Shown: positions 26,943-34,113 of the stretch, piece after piece
Layout: every line of letters starts with the position of its first letter
How positions within the stretch are numbered: the stretch's first letter is position 1
Origin: Candidatus Moraniibacteriota bacterium
GTDB taxonomy: Bacteria > Patescibacteriota > Minisyncoccia > Moranbacterales > JBBINP01
Assembly: GCA_037443825.1 (NCBI GenBank)
Contig: JBBINP010000001.1
Location: 1,430-65,429, forward strand
DNA length: 64,000 bases
Reading direction: 5' to 3'
Notes under the pieces: generated by a model
Told to the model about the DNA's origin: nothing
Database searches by the model: none
The model's input: only the letters and a program-made list of their open reading frames with translations
Program-made: the position numbers and the translations under genes

Positions 26943-26971
26943 TTGACTTTCTATTTTCTTTCTATTATGTT
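26943..26971 (+). promoter_or_regulatory. putative promoter of lexA (TTGACT-17-TATGTT)
   Basis: -35 TTGACT at 26943-26948 and a -10-like TATGTT at 26966-26971. A weak call. Confidence 0.3.
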
Positions 26972-26975
26972 ATTA

Positions 26976-27012
26976 GCATAGAGTTAAGATAAAATAAGGT
27001 CAAACTCTATGC
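26976..27012 (+). promoter_or_regulatory. perfect 10-bp inverted repeat GCATAGAGTT-N17-AACTCTATGC overlapping the lexA start codon
   Basis: Arms at 26976-26985 and 27003-27012; the ATG at 27009-27011 lies inside the right arm. Confidence 0.45.
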
Positions 27013-27521
27013 TTACAAAAAGACAAAAACAAGTTTTAGACTTTATATCCTTGTATCACAACAAGAAAGGATATGCGCCCTCTTTGGAGGAAATACGCAA
27101 AAAATTTAAACTCGCATCTGTTTCTACCGCCCATTTTCATGTTAAAAAGTTGCAAGATTTGGGGTTCATAGGAAAACAAGATAATAGATCAAGATCAATC
27201 GATATTTACGAAAAAGAAAAAATGGTTAATATTCCACTGTTTGGTTTAATTGCCGCTGGTCAACCTATTGAGGCGATACAAAACAAAGAGATGATCGCCG
27301 TGCCAAAAAGCAAAGTATCGCGCATAGGTGAATTTTATGCTCTGCGAGTAGTTGGTGACAGTGTGATTGATGAAAATATAAATGACGGCGATTTGGTTTT
27401 GGTAAAACAGCAAGCCACTGCCGAAAACGGACAAAAAGTTGTTGCGCTCGTGGATAACTATAAGGCAACATTAAAAAAATTTTATAAGGAAAAAATATAT
27501 AAGATTACAACCAGCGAATAA
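27009..27521 (+). CDS. lexA: LexA-like repressor (winged-helix DNA-binding domain + S24 peptidase), C-terminus disrupted by a +1 frameshift at an A6 run
   Basis: LexA N-domain (LTKRQKQVLDFI...APSLEEI) and S24 motifs (AAGQPIEA, GDSV, VALVDNYKATLKKFYKE). The annotated frame ends ...KEKIYKITTSE*. The +1 frame from 27475 encodes the expected LexA C-terminus YIRLQPANKTIEPIIIKRDRELAIQGIVIDVIRNE, as in B. subtilis LexA ([31 protein letters not shown]). Confidence 0.75.
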   Translation: MLTKRQKQVLDFISLYHNKKGYAPSLEEIRKKFKLASVSTAHFHVKKLQDLGFIGKQDNRSRSIDIYEKEKMVNIPLFGLIAAGQPIEAIQNKEMIAVPKSKVSRIGEFYALRVVGDSVIDENINDGDLVLVKQQATAENGQKVVALVDNYKATLKKFYKEKIYKITTSE

Positions 27522-27708
27522 AACTATTGAACCGATTATTATAAAAAGAGACAGAGAGCTAGCAATACAAGGCATTGTTATTGATGTAATAAGGAACGAG
27601 GAAAATTTACAGGCGGAAAAACTTTTCAAGAGCAAGGAAATAAAAAGAAATAAAACACTCCCATTAAATAAGATTATTTTAGGCGATGCCGCAGAAGAAT
27701 TAAAAAAG

Positions 27709-28533
27709 TTGCCAAATGAAAGTTGCGATGTAGTTGTTGTTGATCCGCCATATAATATAGGAAAAGATTTCGGAAACAATATAGATAAGCGCGAATTGAA
27801 AGAATATATTGTTTGGTGTAAAGAATGGATAAATGAATCAATTCGCGTAATGAAGCCAACGGGGACAATGTTTATTTATGGATTCAGTGAGATACTTGCT
27901 TATTTATCAGTAGAAATTCCTATCAATAAACGCTGGTTTATTTGGCATTACACGAACAAAAATGTCGCTTCGTTAAATTTTTGGCAAAGAAGCCATGAAT
28001 CAATTATCTGTGCGTGGAAAGATAAACCAATTTTTAATAAAGATGATGTCAGAGAGCCATACACCGAAGGTTTTTTGAATGGAGCCGCCGGAAAAATCAG
28101 AAAAGGAACTGCTGGAAGATTCAGCAGTAGCGGAAAAGAAACGGTTTATAACGCTCATGCCGGCGGGGCCTTGCCTCGCGATGTAATAAAAATACCAGCT
28201 TTGGCTGGCGGGGCGGGAATGAATGAAAGATGGTTTATTTGTAAAACTTGCAAAGATCAAGTTTTTGAACCAAGAGAATTAAAAAATCATGCTAAACATG
28301 ACATAGTCAAACACCCGACACAAAAACCTATTGAATTGTCGCGAAAATTAGTAATGTCCGCGATGCCGAAAAAAGACGGAGTTGTGTTGGTGCCATTTGT
28401 TGGCACTGGCTCTGATTGCGTGGCAGCTAAGGAGTTAGGCCAATTTTATGTAGGGTTTGAAATAAACCCCGATTATATTAAACTGGCTGAAAAATATTTG
28501 GAAAAAAGTAAATACATTTCAAAACTATTTTAA
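27709..28533 (+). CDS. beta-class N4-cytosine/N6-adenine DNA methyltransferase (DPPY motif IV first, FVGTGSD motif I last). Its reading frame is open upstream to 27475 and contiguous with the shifted LexA C-terminus
   Basis: VVVVDPPYN, the PTQKP motif, and the C-terminal FVGTGSDCVAAKELG. 27709 is a TTG. No ATG or GTG occurs in frame between the stop at 27472 and 27709, although the conserved N-terminal region (ILGDAAEELKKLPNES) lies upstream of the TTG. Confidence 0.75.
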   Translation: MPNESCDVVVVDPPYNIGKDFGNNIDKRELKEYIVWCKEWINESIRVMKPTGTMFIYGFSEILAYLSVEIPINKRWFIWHYTNKNVASLNFWQRSHESIICAWKDKPIFNKDDVREPYTEGFLNGAAGKIRKGTAGRFSSSGKETVYNAHAGGALPRDVIKIPALAGGAGMNERWFICKTCKDQVFEPRELKNHAKHDIVKHPTQKPIELSRKLVMSAMPKKDGVVLVPFVGTGSDCVAAKELGQFYVGFEINPDYIKLAEKYLEKSKYISKLF

Positions 28534-28743
28534 AGAATTATCTATTTCTTTTTTCTTTGACAAAAAAGTATTTGGGGTAAAAACTGAGTATTTATCTTTT
28601 GAGTTCCAGTTAAATGATTCTTTAAACTCAAGCCAGCCACTTTCGCGCGAGATTATTCTGTCCGCGATTGTTTCGTGGAATAGAAATATCTTTTTGTATT
28701 CATCGCTTTTTAGAAAATCTGTATTCATAATAAAGCGGATAAA

Positions 28744-31743
28744 TTACTCTCCCCACACGCCCGCTAAAATTTCCTCAATTCGCTTTTGGGCTTCGGATTT
28801 AAGCAGTCGCACGCCTTCCAGCGCCTGCATTTGCTTGTCTAGTTTCTCCACGATTTGGTGTTGGGTTTCGAGGGGTGGAATTAGAAAAAATATGTTTTTT
28901 AGATCTTTTTCATAGATCGCTGCAATATTTGTTGAGGCTTTTTTTATTCCATTTAGCTGATCGGAAACATAATCAGACAAAAAACAATAATTCAAATAAT
29001 CGGGCAATATTTCAGGTTTTGTTTTGATTCTCATCAACATGTGATTAAACAAAACCGGTCTTTCATTATTTTTCTTAAATATTGCCGTTTTTCCTACTAA
29101 TTCAAAGCTGTTACGTGTATTAAACAGAAGGTCATTATCGTCCAGTTTAAATTTGTCTATTTCTTCATTACTAGCTTCAATCGTAACAATACTTGCTTGC
29201 TCAATAAAACCTGACTGAATATTGTTCATTTTGATATATTCAACATCTCCCTTGTCTGTTTCCTCTTTTGTTTTTACTAAGCCAATTTGGGTTGATTCAA
29301 CAATATTTTTAAAAAACTTTTTTTCACCGATAAACGAATGACTACTAATTGAAAAATTATCTTCAATCCTCTCCGCTCCATCAATAATCTGCTTTTGCTT
29401 TTCGATTTTTTCCACGATTTCGTTTTGGACTTCAAGCGGCGGGAGGGGAATTTGTAATGCTAAAATTTCTTCGGTTTTATAGGTTTCGCGACCGGTTGAA
29501 TCTTCAATGCCCAGTTTCGCAAAAGCCGGTTTTAAAAAAATCAACAAATAGTCAGGATTGATTTTTGTATCGTCAATCCTAAACGGAACAAAAGTACCCG
29601 TTGAAACATAATTTTTATCGGAAATCGCAAACGAGCCATTCTGAGTATGCATTTTCCCAATAACAAGATCATCTTTTTGAATAAGAAGTCGTTTTTTGAC
29701 TTTTAGCTCTACCCCCAAACATTCGTTGTTTGTAGAAATAGTATTTGTTTTTGTTGAGATTGTTGGCTCGCAATATATTTTTTCATCTTCAATTTCAATT
29801 TTTCTTTCATCCGACAAATCAATCAAAAATGTGCTCAACGGTTCAAATGTAAATTGCTTTGTTTCTTTCAAAATCTCAAAAAGCTTGGCAAGTTTTTCAT
29901 CTCCTTCTAAAGCATTTTTCTCCAATTTACTCAGAAATTCCCTTGCAATATCCATTTGCAAAGCGTCTTTGGGATTAAAAGAAGCGAGGATTTGTAAAAC
30001 GGTTTTTGGTTCAGCTTTTTGTAATTCTTGATAGCGTTTATCAATTTTTGAGCCGTTTTTTATTTCCACACCTTTTAGTGTTTCTTGCCAATCCTTGATC
30101 TGCTCAATGCTTAAATTACTGCGATAGTTTTGCAAGTTAAAATGGTAGCTATGCGCTTTTTCAATGGCTTTGGCAACTTCGTTGTCAATTTGTCCTTCCA
30201 CGATATTGTCAAACTGCCACAATTTCTCGTCATACATTTCCTTGCTGATTTTTTTGCTTTCCAGTTTTTTATCTAATTGTTCAATAAGTTTTTCTCGTTT
30301 TTTAGCGTTTTTCTCTTTGGTTTTTTCGCTAACCTCTTTTTTTATTCGCTCGGCAATGCGCGGATCAAGGGTTTCGATCTGTTCTTTGGAAATGCAAAAA
30401 CTGTGTTTGGTGTCTTGTGGCTTTTTACTTTGCTTAACTTCTGCAAATAGTTTTAAGAGTTCAGGAATTTGACTGCTTTCAATCGGTTTTCTGTTGGTTC
30501 CCATACTAAAGCCGTCATTTTCTATTTTGTAATACCAAACAAAATCTGTCGGTTCACCTTTTTCAAAATATAAAATCGAAGTTTTGGCTCCTTGCCCGCT
30601 CTTGCTCACAAACACGCCTTGCGGAAGTGAGATAACTGCTCGCAGATTGGTTTCATTCAGAAGTATTTTACGAAGCGCGCAAGCGCTATTTTGCCCCCAA
30701 GTTAAAAAGCCCTCGGAAACAACTACGGCACAACGCCCCTTATCTTTGAGTAAATCAAACATAAGTTTTACGAACAAAATCGTCGTTTCCGATTCCTTGG
30801 AGTATTCTTCCCAAACATTTGGATATGCCGGCTGGTCTCTCTCAGCACCAAAAGGGGGATTGGCAATTACCACGCTTTTGCTTCCGCCGTCTCTGGACGG
30901 ATCGTACATTTTGAGACTGTCGCCTTGATCAATGTTGTGCGGATTAAGTCCGCGAATATACATATTCACCGCCGCCATTTTGCGAATCATTCCCGCATAT
31001 TCAATTCCACCAATTCCGGTGCGATAAAACATATTGGCGATATTTTCGGCAGGAAATTGCCTTGTTTGGCGCGCTTTTTCTATCACATAATCATACGCAT
31101 CAAAAAGAAAACCAGCCGTACCGCAAGCGGGATCAAAAATCGTGTCCGTAAAATCCGGGTCAACCATCTCAACCATCATTTGGCGAATATGGTCTGGCGT
31201 TCGGTAAAGTCCCAAATCTTTTGTTCCGCCGGTTTCAGAAAGAGCGGATTCAATCGCATCGCCGAGTAAATCAGTTTTTAAAATATATTTTTCGTCAATT
31301 TCGTTTACCATGCCGATTACTTCAGCGATCACTCCGCCTTTGACATTATTGGTAAAGTTGGAATTGGCAAAAACTTCTTCCATTAAAACCAACTGATCTT
31401 GCATTTTTTTGGGTAGATTTCCGATGACGACTGTTCGCGCTTTGGAAAGAATGGTGGAGTAAAACGGAAAAATATTTTTATTGAGTTCTGATAAAATTTG
31501 CTCACCGTTCAAAGAAAGCAAATGCGAAAAAAGCAGGCGATAATTTTCACCCGAGAAAAGCTCGCGCAGCGGCTTGAATGATTCGTCTTGTTTGAGTTTG
31601 GCTTCGAAAATGCGAAGTAAACAGAGCTCAATAATATATTCAACACGCATAACCGGCGTGCCGGCAGGACGAAGCTTATTGTGAAGCCTTTTTAGAATAT
31701 TATTTGTTTCGCTATCTGCGTAATGTGTTGTTGATCTGCCCAT
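28744..31743 (-). CDS. Type I restriction-modification HsdM-HsdS fusion (N6-adenine MTase domain + coiled-coil linker + two target-recognition domains)
   Basis: MTase motifs DPACGTAGFL (motif I) and VVIANPPFG (motif IV). A long charged coiled-coil spans about aa 430-640. Two TRD modules each end with the conserved HsdS helices (LPPLEVQNEIVEKIE and IPPLETQHQIVEKLD). Confidence 0.8.
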   Translation of the reverse strand: MGRSTTHYADSETNNILKRLHNKLRPAGTPVMRVEYIIELCLLRIFEAKLKQDESFKPLRELFSGENYRLLFSHLLSLNGEQILSELNKNIFPFYSTILSKARTVVIGNLPKKMQDQLVLMEEVFANSNFTNNVKGGVIAEVIGMVNEIDEKYILKTDLLGDAIESALSETGGTKDLGLYRTPDHIRQMMVEMVDPDFTDTIFDPACGTAGFLFDAYDYVIEKARQTRQFPAENIANMFYRTGIGGIEYAGMIRKMAAVNMYIRGLNPHNIDQGDSLKMYDPSRDGGSKSVVIANPPFGAERDQPAYPNVWEEYSKESETTILFVKLMFDLLKDKGRCAVVVSEGFLTWGQNSACALRKILLNETNLRAVISLPQGVFVSKSGQGAKTSILYFEKGEPTDFVWYYKIENDGFSMGTNRKPIESSQIPELLKLFAEVKQSKKPQDTKHSFCISKEQIETLDPRIAERIKKEVSEKTKEKNAKKREKLIEQLDKKLESKKISKEMYDEKLWQFDNIVEGQIDNEVAKAIEKAHSYHFNLQNYRSNLSIEQIKDWQETLKGVEIKNGSKIDKRYQELQKAEPKTVLQILASFNPKDALQMDIAREFLSKLEKNALEGDEKLAKLFEILKETKQFTFEPLSTFLIDLSDERKIEIEDEKIYCEPTISTKTNTISTNNECLGVELKVKKRLLIQKDDLVIGKMHTQNGSFAISDKNYVSTGTFVPFRIDDTKINPDYLLIFLKPAFAKLGIEDSTGRETYKTEEILALQIPLPPLEVQNEIVEKIEKQKQIIDGAERIEDNFSISSHSFIGEKKFFKNIVESTQIGLVKTKEETDKGDVEYIKMNNIQSGFIEQASIVTIEASNEEIDKFKLDDNDLLFNTRNSFELVGKTAIFKKNNERPVLFNHMLMRIKTKPEILPDYLNYCFLSDYVSDQLNGIKKASTNIAAIYEKDLKNIFFLIPPLETQHQIVEKLDKQMQALEGVRLLKSEAQKRIEEILAGVWGE

Positions 31744-31746
31744 AAC

Positions 31747-34113
31747 TTATACCTTAAATGTTGATTGTAATTCCTCATAAACTTGAGGAAAGCGGTTATC
31801 AAAAACCTGATTTACTTCTTCATAATCCGCGCCAATAATTCTTATAAACACCGGATTATTAAATACTTCTTGCGGTGAAATGCGTTTTTTCTCGGCTATG
31901 TTTGCCGAAACAATATCTTTCATGTCGCGCAAGATTTGAATTTGCTTGTCGTTGAAATTATATGTCTTGATGTATGAATCAAAACCTCTTTCAACTCGTT
32001 CTTTCGGAGTAGGAATTTTTTTGATTTTTAAAGCGTGTAAAAAAAAGTCCCAAATTGATCCCTGTTCAAAATCGTAGGCTTTTTGCAATTGTCCCTCATC
32101 AAGATAAACGTTTGGGTTGCGCGACCAATTTTTAATCTCGTCAATTTCTTGCTCGCTTGGCTCGTAATTTTCATTCGATTTAACTTTCTCTTTAATCTCT
32201 ACGATTTCCGGAGCTTTATCCTTAGTGATCTCTTCTTCAAAAATTTCTTTGGCTTTTTCAATAGGGATATTGTCTATTACTTTTATGCTGTCGCCGTGAA
32301 GGTAAACCCTCTGAATAAGGTGCGCGGGATCTGGATTGTCAATTATACCTGGATTTACCCCACCCCCTCCGCCTCCACTGCCTCCAGTTTGTATTCCTGT
32401 TACAACTTTTTTGTTTTCCTTTACAGTGCCCTTGCCGTTATCTTCCATTTTTTTGCACAGACCAACAAAATCCAAAACTTTAAAACTGAATTTTCCAGTT
32501 TTCGGATCAAGACGAGTTCCACGCCCGAGCATTTGAATATACTTTCCGACTGATTTTGTAAGATTGGCAAAAGCAATATAGCGAACGCAAGGAATATCAA
32601 CGCCGGTACTCATAATATCCACAGAAACAGCGATAAACGGCTTATGATTTTGATCTTTGAACCATTTTTTAAACGTTGCGTTAAGCTCGTCGTTTTCTGA
32701 AATAATAGCTTCTGCATAGCGTGGTGATAATTCATCCTCGCTTGTTTTAAATACTTGATTGATTGCTTTGACGAGTTGAACGGCATGAGCTTGGCTGACG
32801 CCAAACAAAATTACCTTCTCGCCATATTCTGTATTGGCTTTCAGTTCTTCTGCAATTCTTAAGCAATTATCCCAAGCGATAAATTTTCTATTTAGTTGTT
32901 CTAGTTTTATCTTTTTTTCTTGATCCAGCTTAACCAATTCTTCGGTTTTCAAATCAAAGTAGTGATCAAAATTTATGCCAACCTCTCGCGCTGTTTTGGT
33001 AAGTTCTGTTTCAATGGATAAAACTTGATAGGGAGCCAAAAAACCCTCATCAATGCCACGCGTAAGGTCAAATTGATAATCTGGCTCGCCGGTTTCACAG
33101 CCAAAAAGCCGATAAGTATCCAAAATCGCCAAATCTTCATCTGGAATTTCTTTACCTTTTTTAGCAACCGCCGTTCTTGGAGTGGCGGTCAATCCAACAC
33201 GAGGGCACAAGAAATGATCAAAAATCAATTTGCGATTAATATTGATAGATCGGTGACATTCATCAACAATAATCAAATCATAAAAACTGTTTGGAATGTT
33301 TTGATAAATATTCTCTAGCGTGTCAATAACGACGACATGAATTTGTGTGTTTTTGTATTGTTTGTAATTGCCCGAAGTAATACGGATAGCAGAGTATTCC
33401 TTACTAATAAGTGAAAACCCGTCGTTGATAACTTGCTCGGCAAGCATAACTCTATCAACCACAAACAAAACACGCTTTGCCATGTTGTATTCAAATAGTG
33501 CTTTTGTGAAAGCAGCCATTGTTCTTGTCTTTCCAAGACCAGTTGCCATATGAACAAGCATTTTTTGTTTACCCTCTTTGTATTTTTGAATAAGCGCTTG
33601 AATACATTCGGTTTGATAATAGGTTTCTTTACCACAGCTTGGATTTATTCCACCCGCAATACCTTTATCAATCGTGATTACTCGATCAAGATTTATTTTT
33701 CTTGCCTGCTCGATTTTAAGTTGCATTTCTTCAAGTGTCATCAAGCTGTTGACTTGGCGAAATTCTCCCGCTTCAAGCCCTTTCCATTCGGTGTCATAAA
33801 AAAGGGTTCGCTCCGGAGAACAAGCATACAAAAAACGAGGTTTTAAAACTGAAGCGTAAAGTGTACGAAGTTTTGTTAGCGCCTTTTTCTCGTCTTCAAA
33901 TTTATTCTCAAAAATAGCAACAATATTATGATTCAAATCCAATAGCGTAATGTCCGGTTTTACACTTTCTCGACCTTCAAATAGCTTTTGTTGTTCTGGT
34001 GTAAGTGAATATTCTTGTTGGTACAACAAAGTATCGCCGACTTTCCAGCCGAGTTTTTTTAGGTCTTCAATTATTTTCAGATCTGTGTCCGTTGCTTCGT
34101 TAATTCTAGGCAT
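31747..34113 (-). CDS. Type I restriction enzyme R subunit-like (N-terminal PD-(D/E)xK nuclease + SF2 helicase)
   Basis: Nuclease motif KPDITLL...IFENK. Helicase motifs HMATGLGKT (Walker A), IIVDECHRS (Walker B), LTATP and QMLGRGTR. A poly-Gly tract (GGSGGGGGG) is present. Confidence 0.8.
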   Translation of the reverse strand: MPRINEATDTDLKIIEDLKKLGWKVGDTLLYQQEYSLTPEQQKLFEGRESVKPDITLLDLNHNIVAIFENKFEDEKKALTKLRTLYASVLKPRFLYACSPERTLFYDTEWKGLEAGEFRQVNSLMTLEEMQLKIEQARKINLDRVITIDKGIAGGINPSCGKETYYQTECIQALIQKYKEGKQKMLVHMATGLGKTRTMAAFTKALFEYNMAKRVLFVVDRVMLAEQVINDGFSLISKEYSAIRITSGNYKQYKNTQIHVVVIDTLENIYQNIPNSFYDLIIVDECHRSININRKLIFDHFLCPRVGLTATPRTAVAKKGKEIPDEDLAILDTYRLFGCETGEPDYQFDLTRGIDEGFLAPYQVLSIETELTKTAREVGINFDHYFDLKTEELVKLDQEKKIKLEQLNRKFIAWDNCLRIAEELKANTEYGEKVILFGVSQAHAVQLVKAINQVFKTSEDELSPRYAEAIISENDELNATFKKWFKDQNHKPFIAVSVDIMSTGVDIPCVRYIAFANLTKSVGKYIQMLGRGTRLDPKTGKFSFKVLDFVGLCKKMEDNGKGTVKENKKVVTGIQTGGSGGGGGGVNPGIIDNPDPAHLIQRVYLHGDSIKVIDNIPIEKAKEIFEEEITKDKAPEIVEIKEKVKSNENYEPSEQEIDEIKNWSRNPNVYLDEGQLQKAYDFEQGSIWDFFLHALKIKKIPTPKERVERGFDSYIKTYNFNDKQIQILRDMKDIVSANIAEKKRISPQEVFNNPVFIRIIGADYEEVNQVFDNRFPQVYEELQSTFKV

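Follow-up and report, generated by a model that had tools for sequence, protein, structure and literature searches.

The 64,000-nucleotide (nt) stretch of a Candidatus Moraniibacteriota bacterium analysed here (contig JBBINP010000001.1; "the window") carries a lexA gene that ends prematurely and runs on, in the +1 frame, into a DNA methyltransferase gene. As judged from its orthologs, LexA and the methyltransferase are genuinely fused in one protein of about 507 aa, the N-terminal ~200 residues of which are a complete LexA. The window quite probably holds a recently inactivated copy of a mobile Patescibacteria type II restriction-modification (R-M) cassette, the toxic partner of which is already lost. 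The puzzling gene pair is thereby explained as a decaying R-M remnant; the break itself is ordinary, while the protein family is of interest.

The LexA-methyltransferase fusion and its family

A first-pass annotation of this DNA had proposed that lexA is frameshifted at an A6 run (27490-27495), and the reading frames agree with it. Frame 0 reads ...ATLKKFYKEKIYKITTSE up to a stop codon at 27519-27521, without the last beta-strands of the S24 fold. The +1 frame has no stop between 27472 and 28533 and gives the textbook LexA C-terminus that had been anticipated, KNFIRKKYIRLQPANKTIEPIIIKRDRELAIQGIVIDVIRNE, followed by a stretch of ~20 residues and then by LNKIILGDAAEELKKLPNESCDVVVVDPPYN and the remaining DNA methyltransferase. 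The absence of ATG or GTG before the conserved pre-DPPY region (ENLQAEKLFKSKEIKRNKTLPLNKIILGDAAEELKKLPNES...DPPY) was likewise borne out, the first ATG, GTG or TTG of the +1 frame being the TTG at 27709, within the conserved methyltransferase N-terminus. The parts of the broken gene are as follows.

27009..27521, + strand: truncated lexA open reading frame (ORF) of 170 aa; winged-helix DNA-binding domain and S24 domain to residue 162, then 8 out-of-frame residues and the stop
27490..27496, + strand: lesion site, A6T where orthologs L002-L007 have A7TT; by DNA comparison, a 2-nt deletion
27496..28533, + strand: rest of the ancestral fusion gene in the +1 frame (end of S24, linker, beta-class methyltransferase)
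to about 27600, + strand: last three S24 beta-strands, +1 frame
about 27601-27660, + strand: variable linker, +1 frame
27742-27753 and 28396-28413, + strand: methyltransferase motifs DPPY and FxGxG (FVGTGS), +1 frame

When one A is removed from the A6 run, a 507-aa protein results in which Pfam recognises LexA_DNA_bind (2-62), Peptidase_S24 (PF00717, 76-191) and N6_N4_Mtase (240-495). A search with this repaired protein returned more than 120 clusters (90% identity), whose 505-510-aa members all have the three domains and share 74-89% identity with it across 100% of its length (E-values down to 0); a chance resemblance is thereby ruled out. The clusters come from Minisyncoccales, Nealsonbacteria, Jorgensenbacteria, Kaiserbacteria and other Patescibacteria, and when one genome per species was scanned, about 27 Patescibacteria genomes turned out to encode the full fusion. 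In every ortholog examined a single frame encodes the fusion, on which purifying selection acts strongly, so that the genuine LexA-methyltransferase fusion envisaged by the first-pass annotation does exist. In the source databases the clusters are named either "transcriptional repressor LexA" or "site-specific DNA-methyltransferase".

The LexA part of the intact fusion comprises all elements of the repressor: the winged helix, the Ala-Gly cleavage site and an S24 domain for Ser/Lys autoproteolysis and dimerisation. Solved LexA structures (Thermotoga 3k2z, E = 4e-35; E. coli LexA, 1jhh, residues 4-200) can be aligned with residues 2-199 over the entire length. The LexA names in databases are explained by the N-terminal module passing the equivalog cut-off of NCBIfam TIGR00498 (lexA), set at 110.95 bits, since the ortholog P0002 scores 189.8 bits. 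The 170-aa fragment of the window scores 146.2 bits and covers profile positions 4-166 of 203. Its winged helix (PF01726, residues 2-62, E = 9e-15) lies 5' of the lesion and is hence intact, and the cleavage site and catalytic pair are kept (Ala83-Gly84, codons 27255-27260; Ser118, 27360-27362; Lys156, 27474-27476); everything past residue 162, that is profile positions 167-203, is lost and leaves the S24 domain incomplete. Alignments A1 and A2 show no change at A83-G84, S118 and K156 in any ortholog, and all of these residues are retained in 43 of 43 diverse fusion representatives, a conservation which argues that self-cleavage, and not just dimerisation, is used. For an intact ortholog, AlphaFold2 with an alignment of 26 sequences reached a mean predicted local distance difference test (pLDDT) of 52 and a predicted template-modelling score (pTM) of 0.33, with the methyltransferase half below 50, and this model lends weak support only to the positions of the last S24 strands.

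The C-terminal half matches PF01555 in the repaired protein with 120.4 bits (cut-off 26.7), and the order of its motifs, DPPY at 245-248 before FVGTGS at 463-468, is that of a beta-class enzyme. The nearest solved structures are M.MboIIA, M.RsrI and CcrM. We also noted an invariant C-x2-C...H-x2-H insertion (CKTCKDQVFEPRELKNHAKHD) at about residues 411-431 of the fusion (about 28240-28305 in the window; alignment A1 columns C411, C414, H427 and H430), which by its sequence resembles a small zinc-binding element and could serve in target recognition.

In order to measure the breadth of the arrangement, the 170-aa fragment was searched against 1.84 billion representatives and the best 150 clusters (50% identity) were considered. 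Among these, 44 are long proteins with a LexA module, N-terminal in all but one. A Pfam scan of 20 of the 44 returned LexA_DNA_bind, Peptidase_S24 and a DNA methyltransferase in 19, the methyltransferases falling into four families: N6_N4_Mtase (several subtypes), the D12/Dam class, N6_Mtase/Eco57I/TaqI_C and the C5 DNA_methylase. Other combinations occur as well, namely the DNA-binding domain alone fused to the methyltransferase, lacking S24 (379-395 aa; L035, L038, L040), and the methyltransferase alone without LexA parts (L036, L037, L042). In other phyla, stand-alone homologues with 50-62% identity adjoin TaqI-family genes.

The novelty claimed for the fusion stands as far as we found no description of it in the literature, though a prior mention in the Patescibacteria SOS paper (PMID 28618189) or in REBASE is possible; a 2025 review of R-M biology has a section on dual-function methyltransferase-repressors in which LexA is not mentioned. 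The family is widespread and apparently undescribed in bacteria, its known parallel being the class of repressors borne on methyltransferases. Pipelines that name 507-aa fusions "transcriptional repressor LexA" inflate the apparent number of SOS regulators in candidate-phyla genomes.

The lesion and the probable decay of the cassette

At the position where the window departs from its frame, six orthologous loci compared at the DNA level (L002-L007) encode FYKEK-N-YIRLQ by AAGGAAAAAAATTATATAAGA, while the window has AAGGAAAAAATATATAAGA. None of the orthologs is gapped at this column in the protein alignments A1 and A2, and L088, which bears a different LexA module, also has A7 at the site. The lesion is thus read most simply as a 2-nt deletion, A7TT to A6T, by which an Asn codon is lost and the frame shifts by +1 after codon 162. 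The extra A in an A5 run assumed by the first-pass annotation has to be given up on this comparison; the check it had asked for, of A-run length and of a stop between lexA and the methyltransferase, returned A7TT and a single-frame fusion, not A5 plus a stop.

The genes around the orthologs show what the fusion belongs to. In the orthologous loci it is convergent with a 229-aa gene whose 3' end overlaps its own by 8 nt and whose product is a Pfam RE_TaqI endonuclease (104.8 bits). Directly upstream of the endonuclease gene and co-oriented with it lies a 72-aa HTH_3 gene, a placement that is usual for C (controller) proteins. Both genes lie directly downstream of the fusion in L002-L009, L088 and others, and a TaqI homologue occupies this position in about 20 of the 27 full-fusion loci. 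With these genes beside its orthologs, the methyltransferase is the M subunit of a type II R-M system whose further parts are a C protein and a TaqI-family endonuclease, and not the orphan enzyme that had been supposed. The neighbours of the cassette vary from locus to locus (gatB in the window; acylphosphatase and truB in L005; ThsB-TIR and GIY-YIG in L002), from which the cassette is taken to be mobile. We also observed a conserved palindromic element, ACCTATTttgggATATACTACAATAGGAT, 5' of the C-protein gene in L005 (7429-7480) with equivalents in L009 and L002; from its sequence and position it is likely the C-box operator of the C/endonuclease operon.

As TCGA is the TaqI site, we counted this tetranucleotide and found 37 copies in the window where 165 are expected, a ratio of 0.22; no other 4-nt palindrome is depleted as strongly. 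It also ranks first in depletion when loci with intact systems are pooled (observed/expected ratio 0.55). Such depletion fits a long exposure to a TCGA-specific system, and TCGA would be the target of the fusion as inferred from the TaqI-family partner and from this depletion.

In the window little of the partner genes remains. DNA homology with the orthologous cassettes extends from about 26945 to about 28584. A tblastn search with the L005 endonuclease found residues 209-229 at 81% identity and no other match in the window, from which the C-protein gene and an intact adjacent endonuclease gene are both absent. Two features mark the broken end of the cassette.

28528..28590, - strand: remnant of the TaqI-family endonuclease gene, its last 21 codons, found by tblastn with the 229-aa L005 endonuclease
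28525..28728, - strand: chimeric 67-aa ORF, an unrelated N-terminal sequence joined to the endonuclease 3' remnant

The chimeric ORF, which has no Pfam match, marks a deletion or rearrangement junction; a possible likeness of its N-terminus to an AlbA_2-type domain was considered and dropped. Altogether, the window copy is most likely a decaying R-M remnant. Its lexA part is predicted to give a misfolded 170-aa fragment, and it probably makes no methyltransferase, since no usable start codon or ribosome-binding site lies 5' of the catalytic domain.

Damage to the endonuclease gene was observed elsewhere too. The endonuclease of L011 is recovered as two tblastn pieces and that of L020 as residues 156-229 only, with the fusion gene intact in both; loss of the endonuclease ahead of the methyltransferase seems to be a recurrent path of decay. 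Among the loci without TaqI, five have a convergent ORF directly downstream of the fusion (L021, L023 and L027, 204-205 aa; L024, 269 aa; L029, 227 aa). These five ORFs have no Pfam match, and they may be unrelated endonucleases that occupy the TaqI slot and are paired with a ~80%-identical methyltransferase. Next to the decayed cassette of the window lie a 999-aa protein with N6_Mtase/Eco57I methyltransferase and type I specificity (Methylase_S) domains (28744-31743, - strand) and, after it, a 788-aa ORF (31747-34113, - strand). By the domains of the 999-aa protein, a second, unrelated R-M system abuts the cassette, as in a defence island.

The reading of the window as a recently inactivated copy has to be weighed against a sequencing or assembly error, in which case the organism would have an intact in-frame fusion gene and the 2-nt loss would be artefactual. 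The lesion does lie within a low-complexity A7TT/TATATA stretch, and the gene is otherwise constrained. Using the Nei-Gojobori method, the ratio of non-synonymous to synonymous substitutions (dN/dS) of the repaired gene against six orthologs is 0.04-0.07 (dS 0.85-1.3), the same as among intact copies. Of the columns that are invariant elsewhere, only two are changed in the window copy (M119V and E469D), and its promoter and operator are intact. These tests, which date the lesion as recent and cannot separate mutation from error, indicate that the fusion was fully constrained in frame until very recently and that the break is very recent. Since the copy carries no signal of long-term decay, they also weigh against inactivation and leave room for a read error or a strain polymorphism. 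What speaks for a real mutation is that two bases were lost across two adjacent runs, which is not the miscalled length of a single run, and that the deletion of the partner genes for endonuclease and C protein is real, which makes the loss of function here not an isolated one. The neighbouring genes of the window are long and uninterrupted, as would not be expected of an assembly riddled with indels. Besides, the independent Logan re-assembly from the raw reads of SRR11582139 (L001, a 14.8-kb contig) is identical to the window across 6513 nt (6.5 kb) including the lesion; a further point against the reading is that the NCBI and Logan assemblies may derive from the same reads. On balance we favour a real, recent inactivating mutation and regard an artefact as rather unlikely. 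Of the recent pseudogenising insertion raised earlier, the recent pseudogenisation therefore fits best, given that the endonuclease and C genes are gone too, while the insertion gives way to a 2-nt deletion.

Two further explanations grant the two-frame gene a function. With programmed +1 frameshifting of the ribosome at the A-run, or with slippage in transcription there, the fusion would be dosed against a truncated repressor. To judge from the sequence, AAA_A followed by an ATA codon might in principle permit +1 slippage of tRNA-Lys, and the +1 frame is open over its whole length; however, an A6 run is shorter than those known for efficient transcriptional slippage. Every ortholog is single-frame and needs no shift at the lesion or at any other site, and the two-frame layout with its truncated 170-aa product is limited to this NCBI record and its Logan re-assembly. 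As neither the shift site nor the architecture is conserved, we reject the frameshifting suggested by the first-pass annotation as extremely improbable. Hardly more credible is a functional split in which a non-cleavable 170-aa mini-repressor and a separate methyltransferase started from TTG 27709 have been retained after endonuclease loss, even if the natural fusions of the DNA-binding domain alone and the methyltransferase-only versions suggest that the modules can work in other combinations. The 274-aa ORF predicted from TTG 27709 lacks the conserved LNKIILGD...LKKLP segment, so that this start drops the invariant methyltransferase N-terminus (fusion residues L217 to P235), and no purine-rich ribosome-binding site lies 5' of it. 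The 170-aa product, without the last three S24 beta-strands, should neither fold nor dimerise, and no other locus among those scanned has such a split.

A candidate operator and the proposed working of the intact protein

The copy in the window still has the control region of its gene, in which three elements overlap or adjoin.

26943..26971, + strand: promoter-like site of the fusion gene, TTGACT-17 nt-TATGTT, from a consensus scan
26949..26964, + strand: candidate operator within the promoter spacer, the direct repeat TTCTA-N6-TTCTA with an 11-bp period
26975..27013, + strand: perfect 11-bp inverted repeat (AGCATAGAGTT...AACTCTATGCT); RNA folding gives -15.6 kcal/mol, z = -6.4

The orthologs have TTGACT or TTGATT and TATACT or TATAAT at the promoter position. 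The two TTCTA units, 11 bp apart, lie in the spacer sequence TTCTATTTTCTTTCTA, and TTCTA-N6-TTCTA has this one exact match in the 64-kb window against a chance expectation of 0.07. Of 31 related loci, 29 have a repeat of this type 40-65 nt 5' of the start codon, and L043 has four tandem units with the same 11-bp period. Other loci have a second version, TTCGG-N6-TTCGG, and the version correlates with the recognition helix of the LexA domain: all 21 proteins with the helix ST[AIV]H-F/Y-H go with TTCTA-type repeats, and 10 of 11 with STxH-E/Q-H go with T/CTCGG repeats. From our reading of the alignment, we take the varying residue to correspond to Glu45 of E. coli LexA. By its position, its conservation and its covariation with the recognition helix, the direct repeat is inferred to be the operator of the fused LexA domain, through which the methyltransferase gene would repress itself. 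The single copy in 64 kb makes the fusion look like a dedicated, not a global, regulator.

The locus L088 (Logan SRR27584552) combines a methyltransferase more than 90% identical to that of the window with a different LexA module (HQH helix) and a TTCGG-N6-TTCGG operator. As the other LexA type comes with its matching operator, module and operator move together. L088 would thus imply recombinational swapping of a regulator-plus-operator unit between near-identical cassettes, and LexA modules appear to be exchanged between cassettes along with their operators.

As modelled by folding, the leader RNA hairpin would make both the AUG and the Shine-Dalgarno sequence of the fusion gene inaccessible. 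The closest orthologs have no more than weak versions of it (-4.8 to -6.4 kcal/mol; L008, L009, L010 and L024). As a side observation, a consensus DnaA box, the perfect 9-mer TGTGGATAA / TTATCCACA in either orientation, lies just 5' of the promoter -35 in 23 of 31 fusion loci (L002, L005, L008-L012, L014, L017-L019, L021-L025, L027, L028, L030-L033, L035). It is placed 50-89 nt upstream of the fusion start, and chance would produce it in a ~100-nt stretch in fewer than 1 per 1000 loci. The box is absent upstream of the window fusion, its nearest copy being 23.5 kb off; the homology of the window to the cassettes begins just downstream of the box position. Through the box, methyltransferase expression might be coupled to DnaA and replication; alternatively, a different protein might bind there.

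We propose the following working for the intact protein. By analogy with M.SsoII, M.Ecl18kI and M.EcoRII, the LexA domain would bind TTCTA-N6-TTCTA in its own promoter and repress methyltransferase synthesis. RecA would be activated by DNA damage, to which self-restriction of under-methylated DNA belongs, and would in turn trigger self-cleavage of the fusion at Ala83-Gly84. With the DNA-binding domain thus detached, the de-repressed gene would then supply more methyltransferase and restore protection. An operator that covaries with the recognition helix suggests such a damage-cleavable autorepressor. Against this scheme it must be said that LexA dimers normally bind inverted and not direct repeats, and that binding to the operator, self-cleavage, dependence on RecA and specificity for TCGA are all putative. 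Neither a second lexA nor a recA is present in the window, which says little as the window is only 64 kb long. Tentatively, and with somewhat less than even confidence, we extend the scheme to the four Pfam families of R-M methyltransferases that carry a full-length, cleavage-competent LexA: this fusion may be a general control device of Patescibacteria, with a direct-repeat operator and an autorepression lifted by RecA.

Known control of R-M systems works through C proteins, antisense RNA or short repressor domains on the methyltransferase, and we know of no type II system that senses DNA damage directly. Through a complete, conserved LexA on the methyltransferase, RecA filaments as the SOS signal would act on the balance of restriction and modification. 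If the scheme is true, it describes a type II system with a built-in feedback loop of restriction alleviation and a natural case of LexA reading a direct repeat.

Comparison with known systems

The closest parallel to the fusion is found in the dual-function methyltransferase-repressors M.SsoII, M.Ecl18kI and M.EcoRII, which have N-terminal repressor domains (PMC12707154, PMC2760811, PMC3978073). As in that class, an N-terminal DNA-binding domain is joined by a flexible linker to a modification methyltransferase, a candidate operator lies in the promoter of the methyltransferase gene itself, and expression is expected to be tied to the level of the methyltransferase protein. In contrast, the fusion begins with an entire LexA (~200 aa), S24 autopeptidase and conserved cleavage site included, where that class has a helix-turn-helix region of ~70 aa, and the enzyme is a beta-class amino-methyltransferase whereas those of the M.SsoII class are C5 enzymes. 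The cassette further differs in its convergent R and M genes, its separate C protein and its direct-repeat candidate operator.

The fusion resembles the LexA repressor of the SOS response in that it aligns with it end to end, passes the equivalog cut-off, conserves Ala-Gly, Ser and Lys and likely regulates its own promoter. Unlike that repressor, it is covalently joined to a DNA methyltransferase and resides on a mobile R-M cassette, and its candidate operator, present once in 64 kb, is an 11-bp-period direct repeat and not a palindrome. With the TaqI R-M system (TCGA) the orthologs share an RE_TaqI partner endonuclease and TCGA as the most avoided 4-nt palindrome; however, M.TaqI is a gamma-class enzyme, while the methyltransferase of the fusion is beta-class, with DPPY before FxGxG, and nearest to M.MboIIA and M.RsrI. 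Finally, the 72-aa HTH_3 gene placed 5' of the endonuclease gene, co-oriented with it and preceded by a palindromic C-box-like sequence recalls the C-protein-controlled systems of PvuII and relatives (PMC2175313), from which the cassette is set apart by the second regulator, the LexA module, that its methyltransferase carries, and the window copy also by the absence of the C gene.

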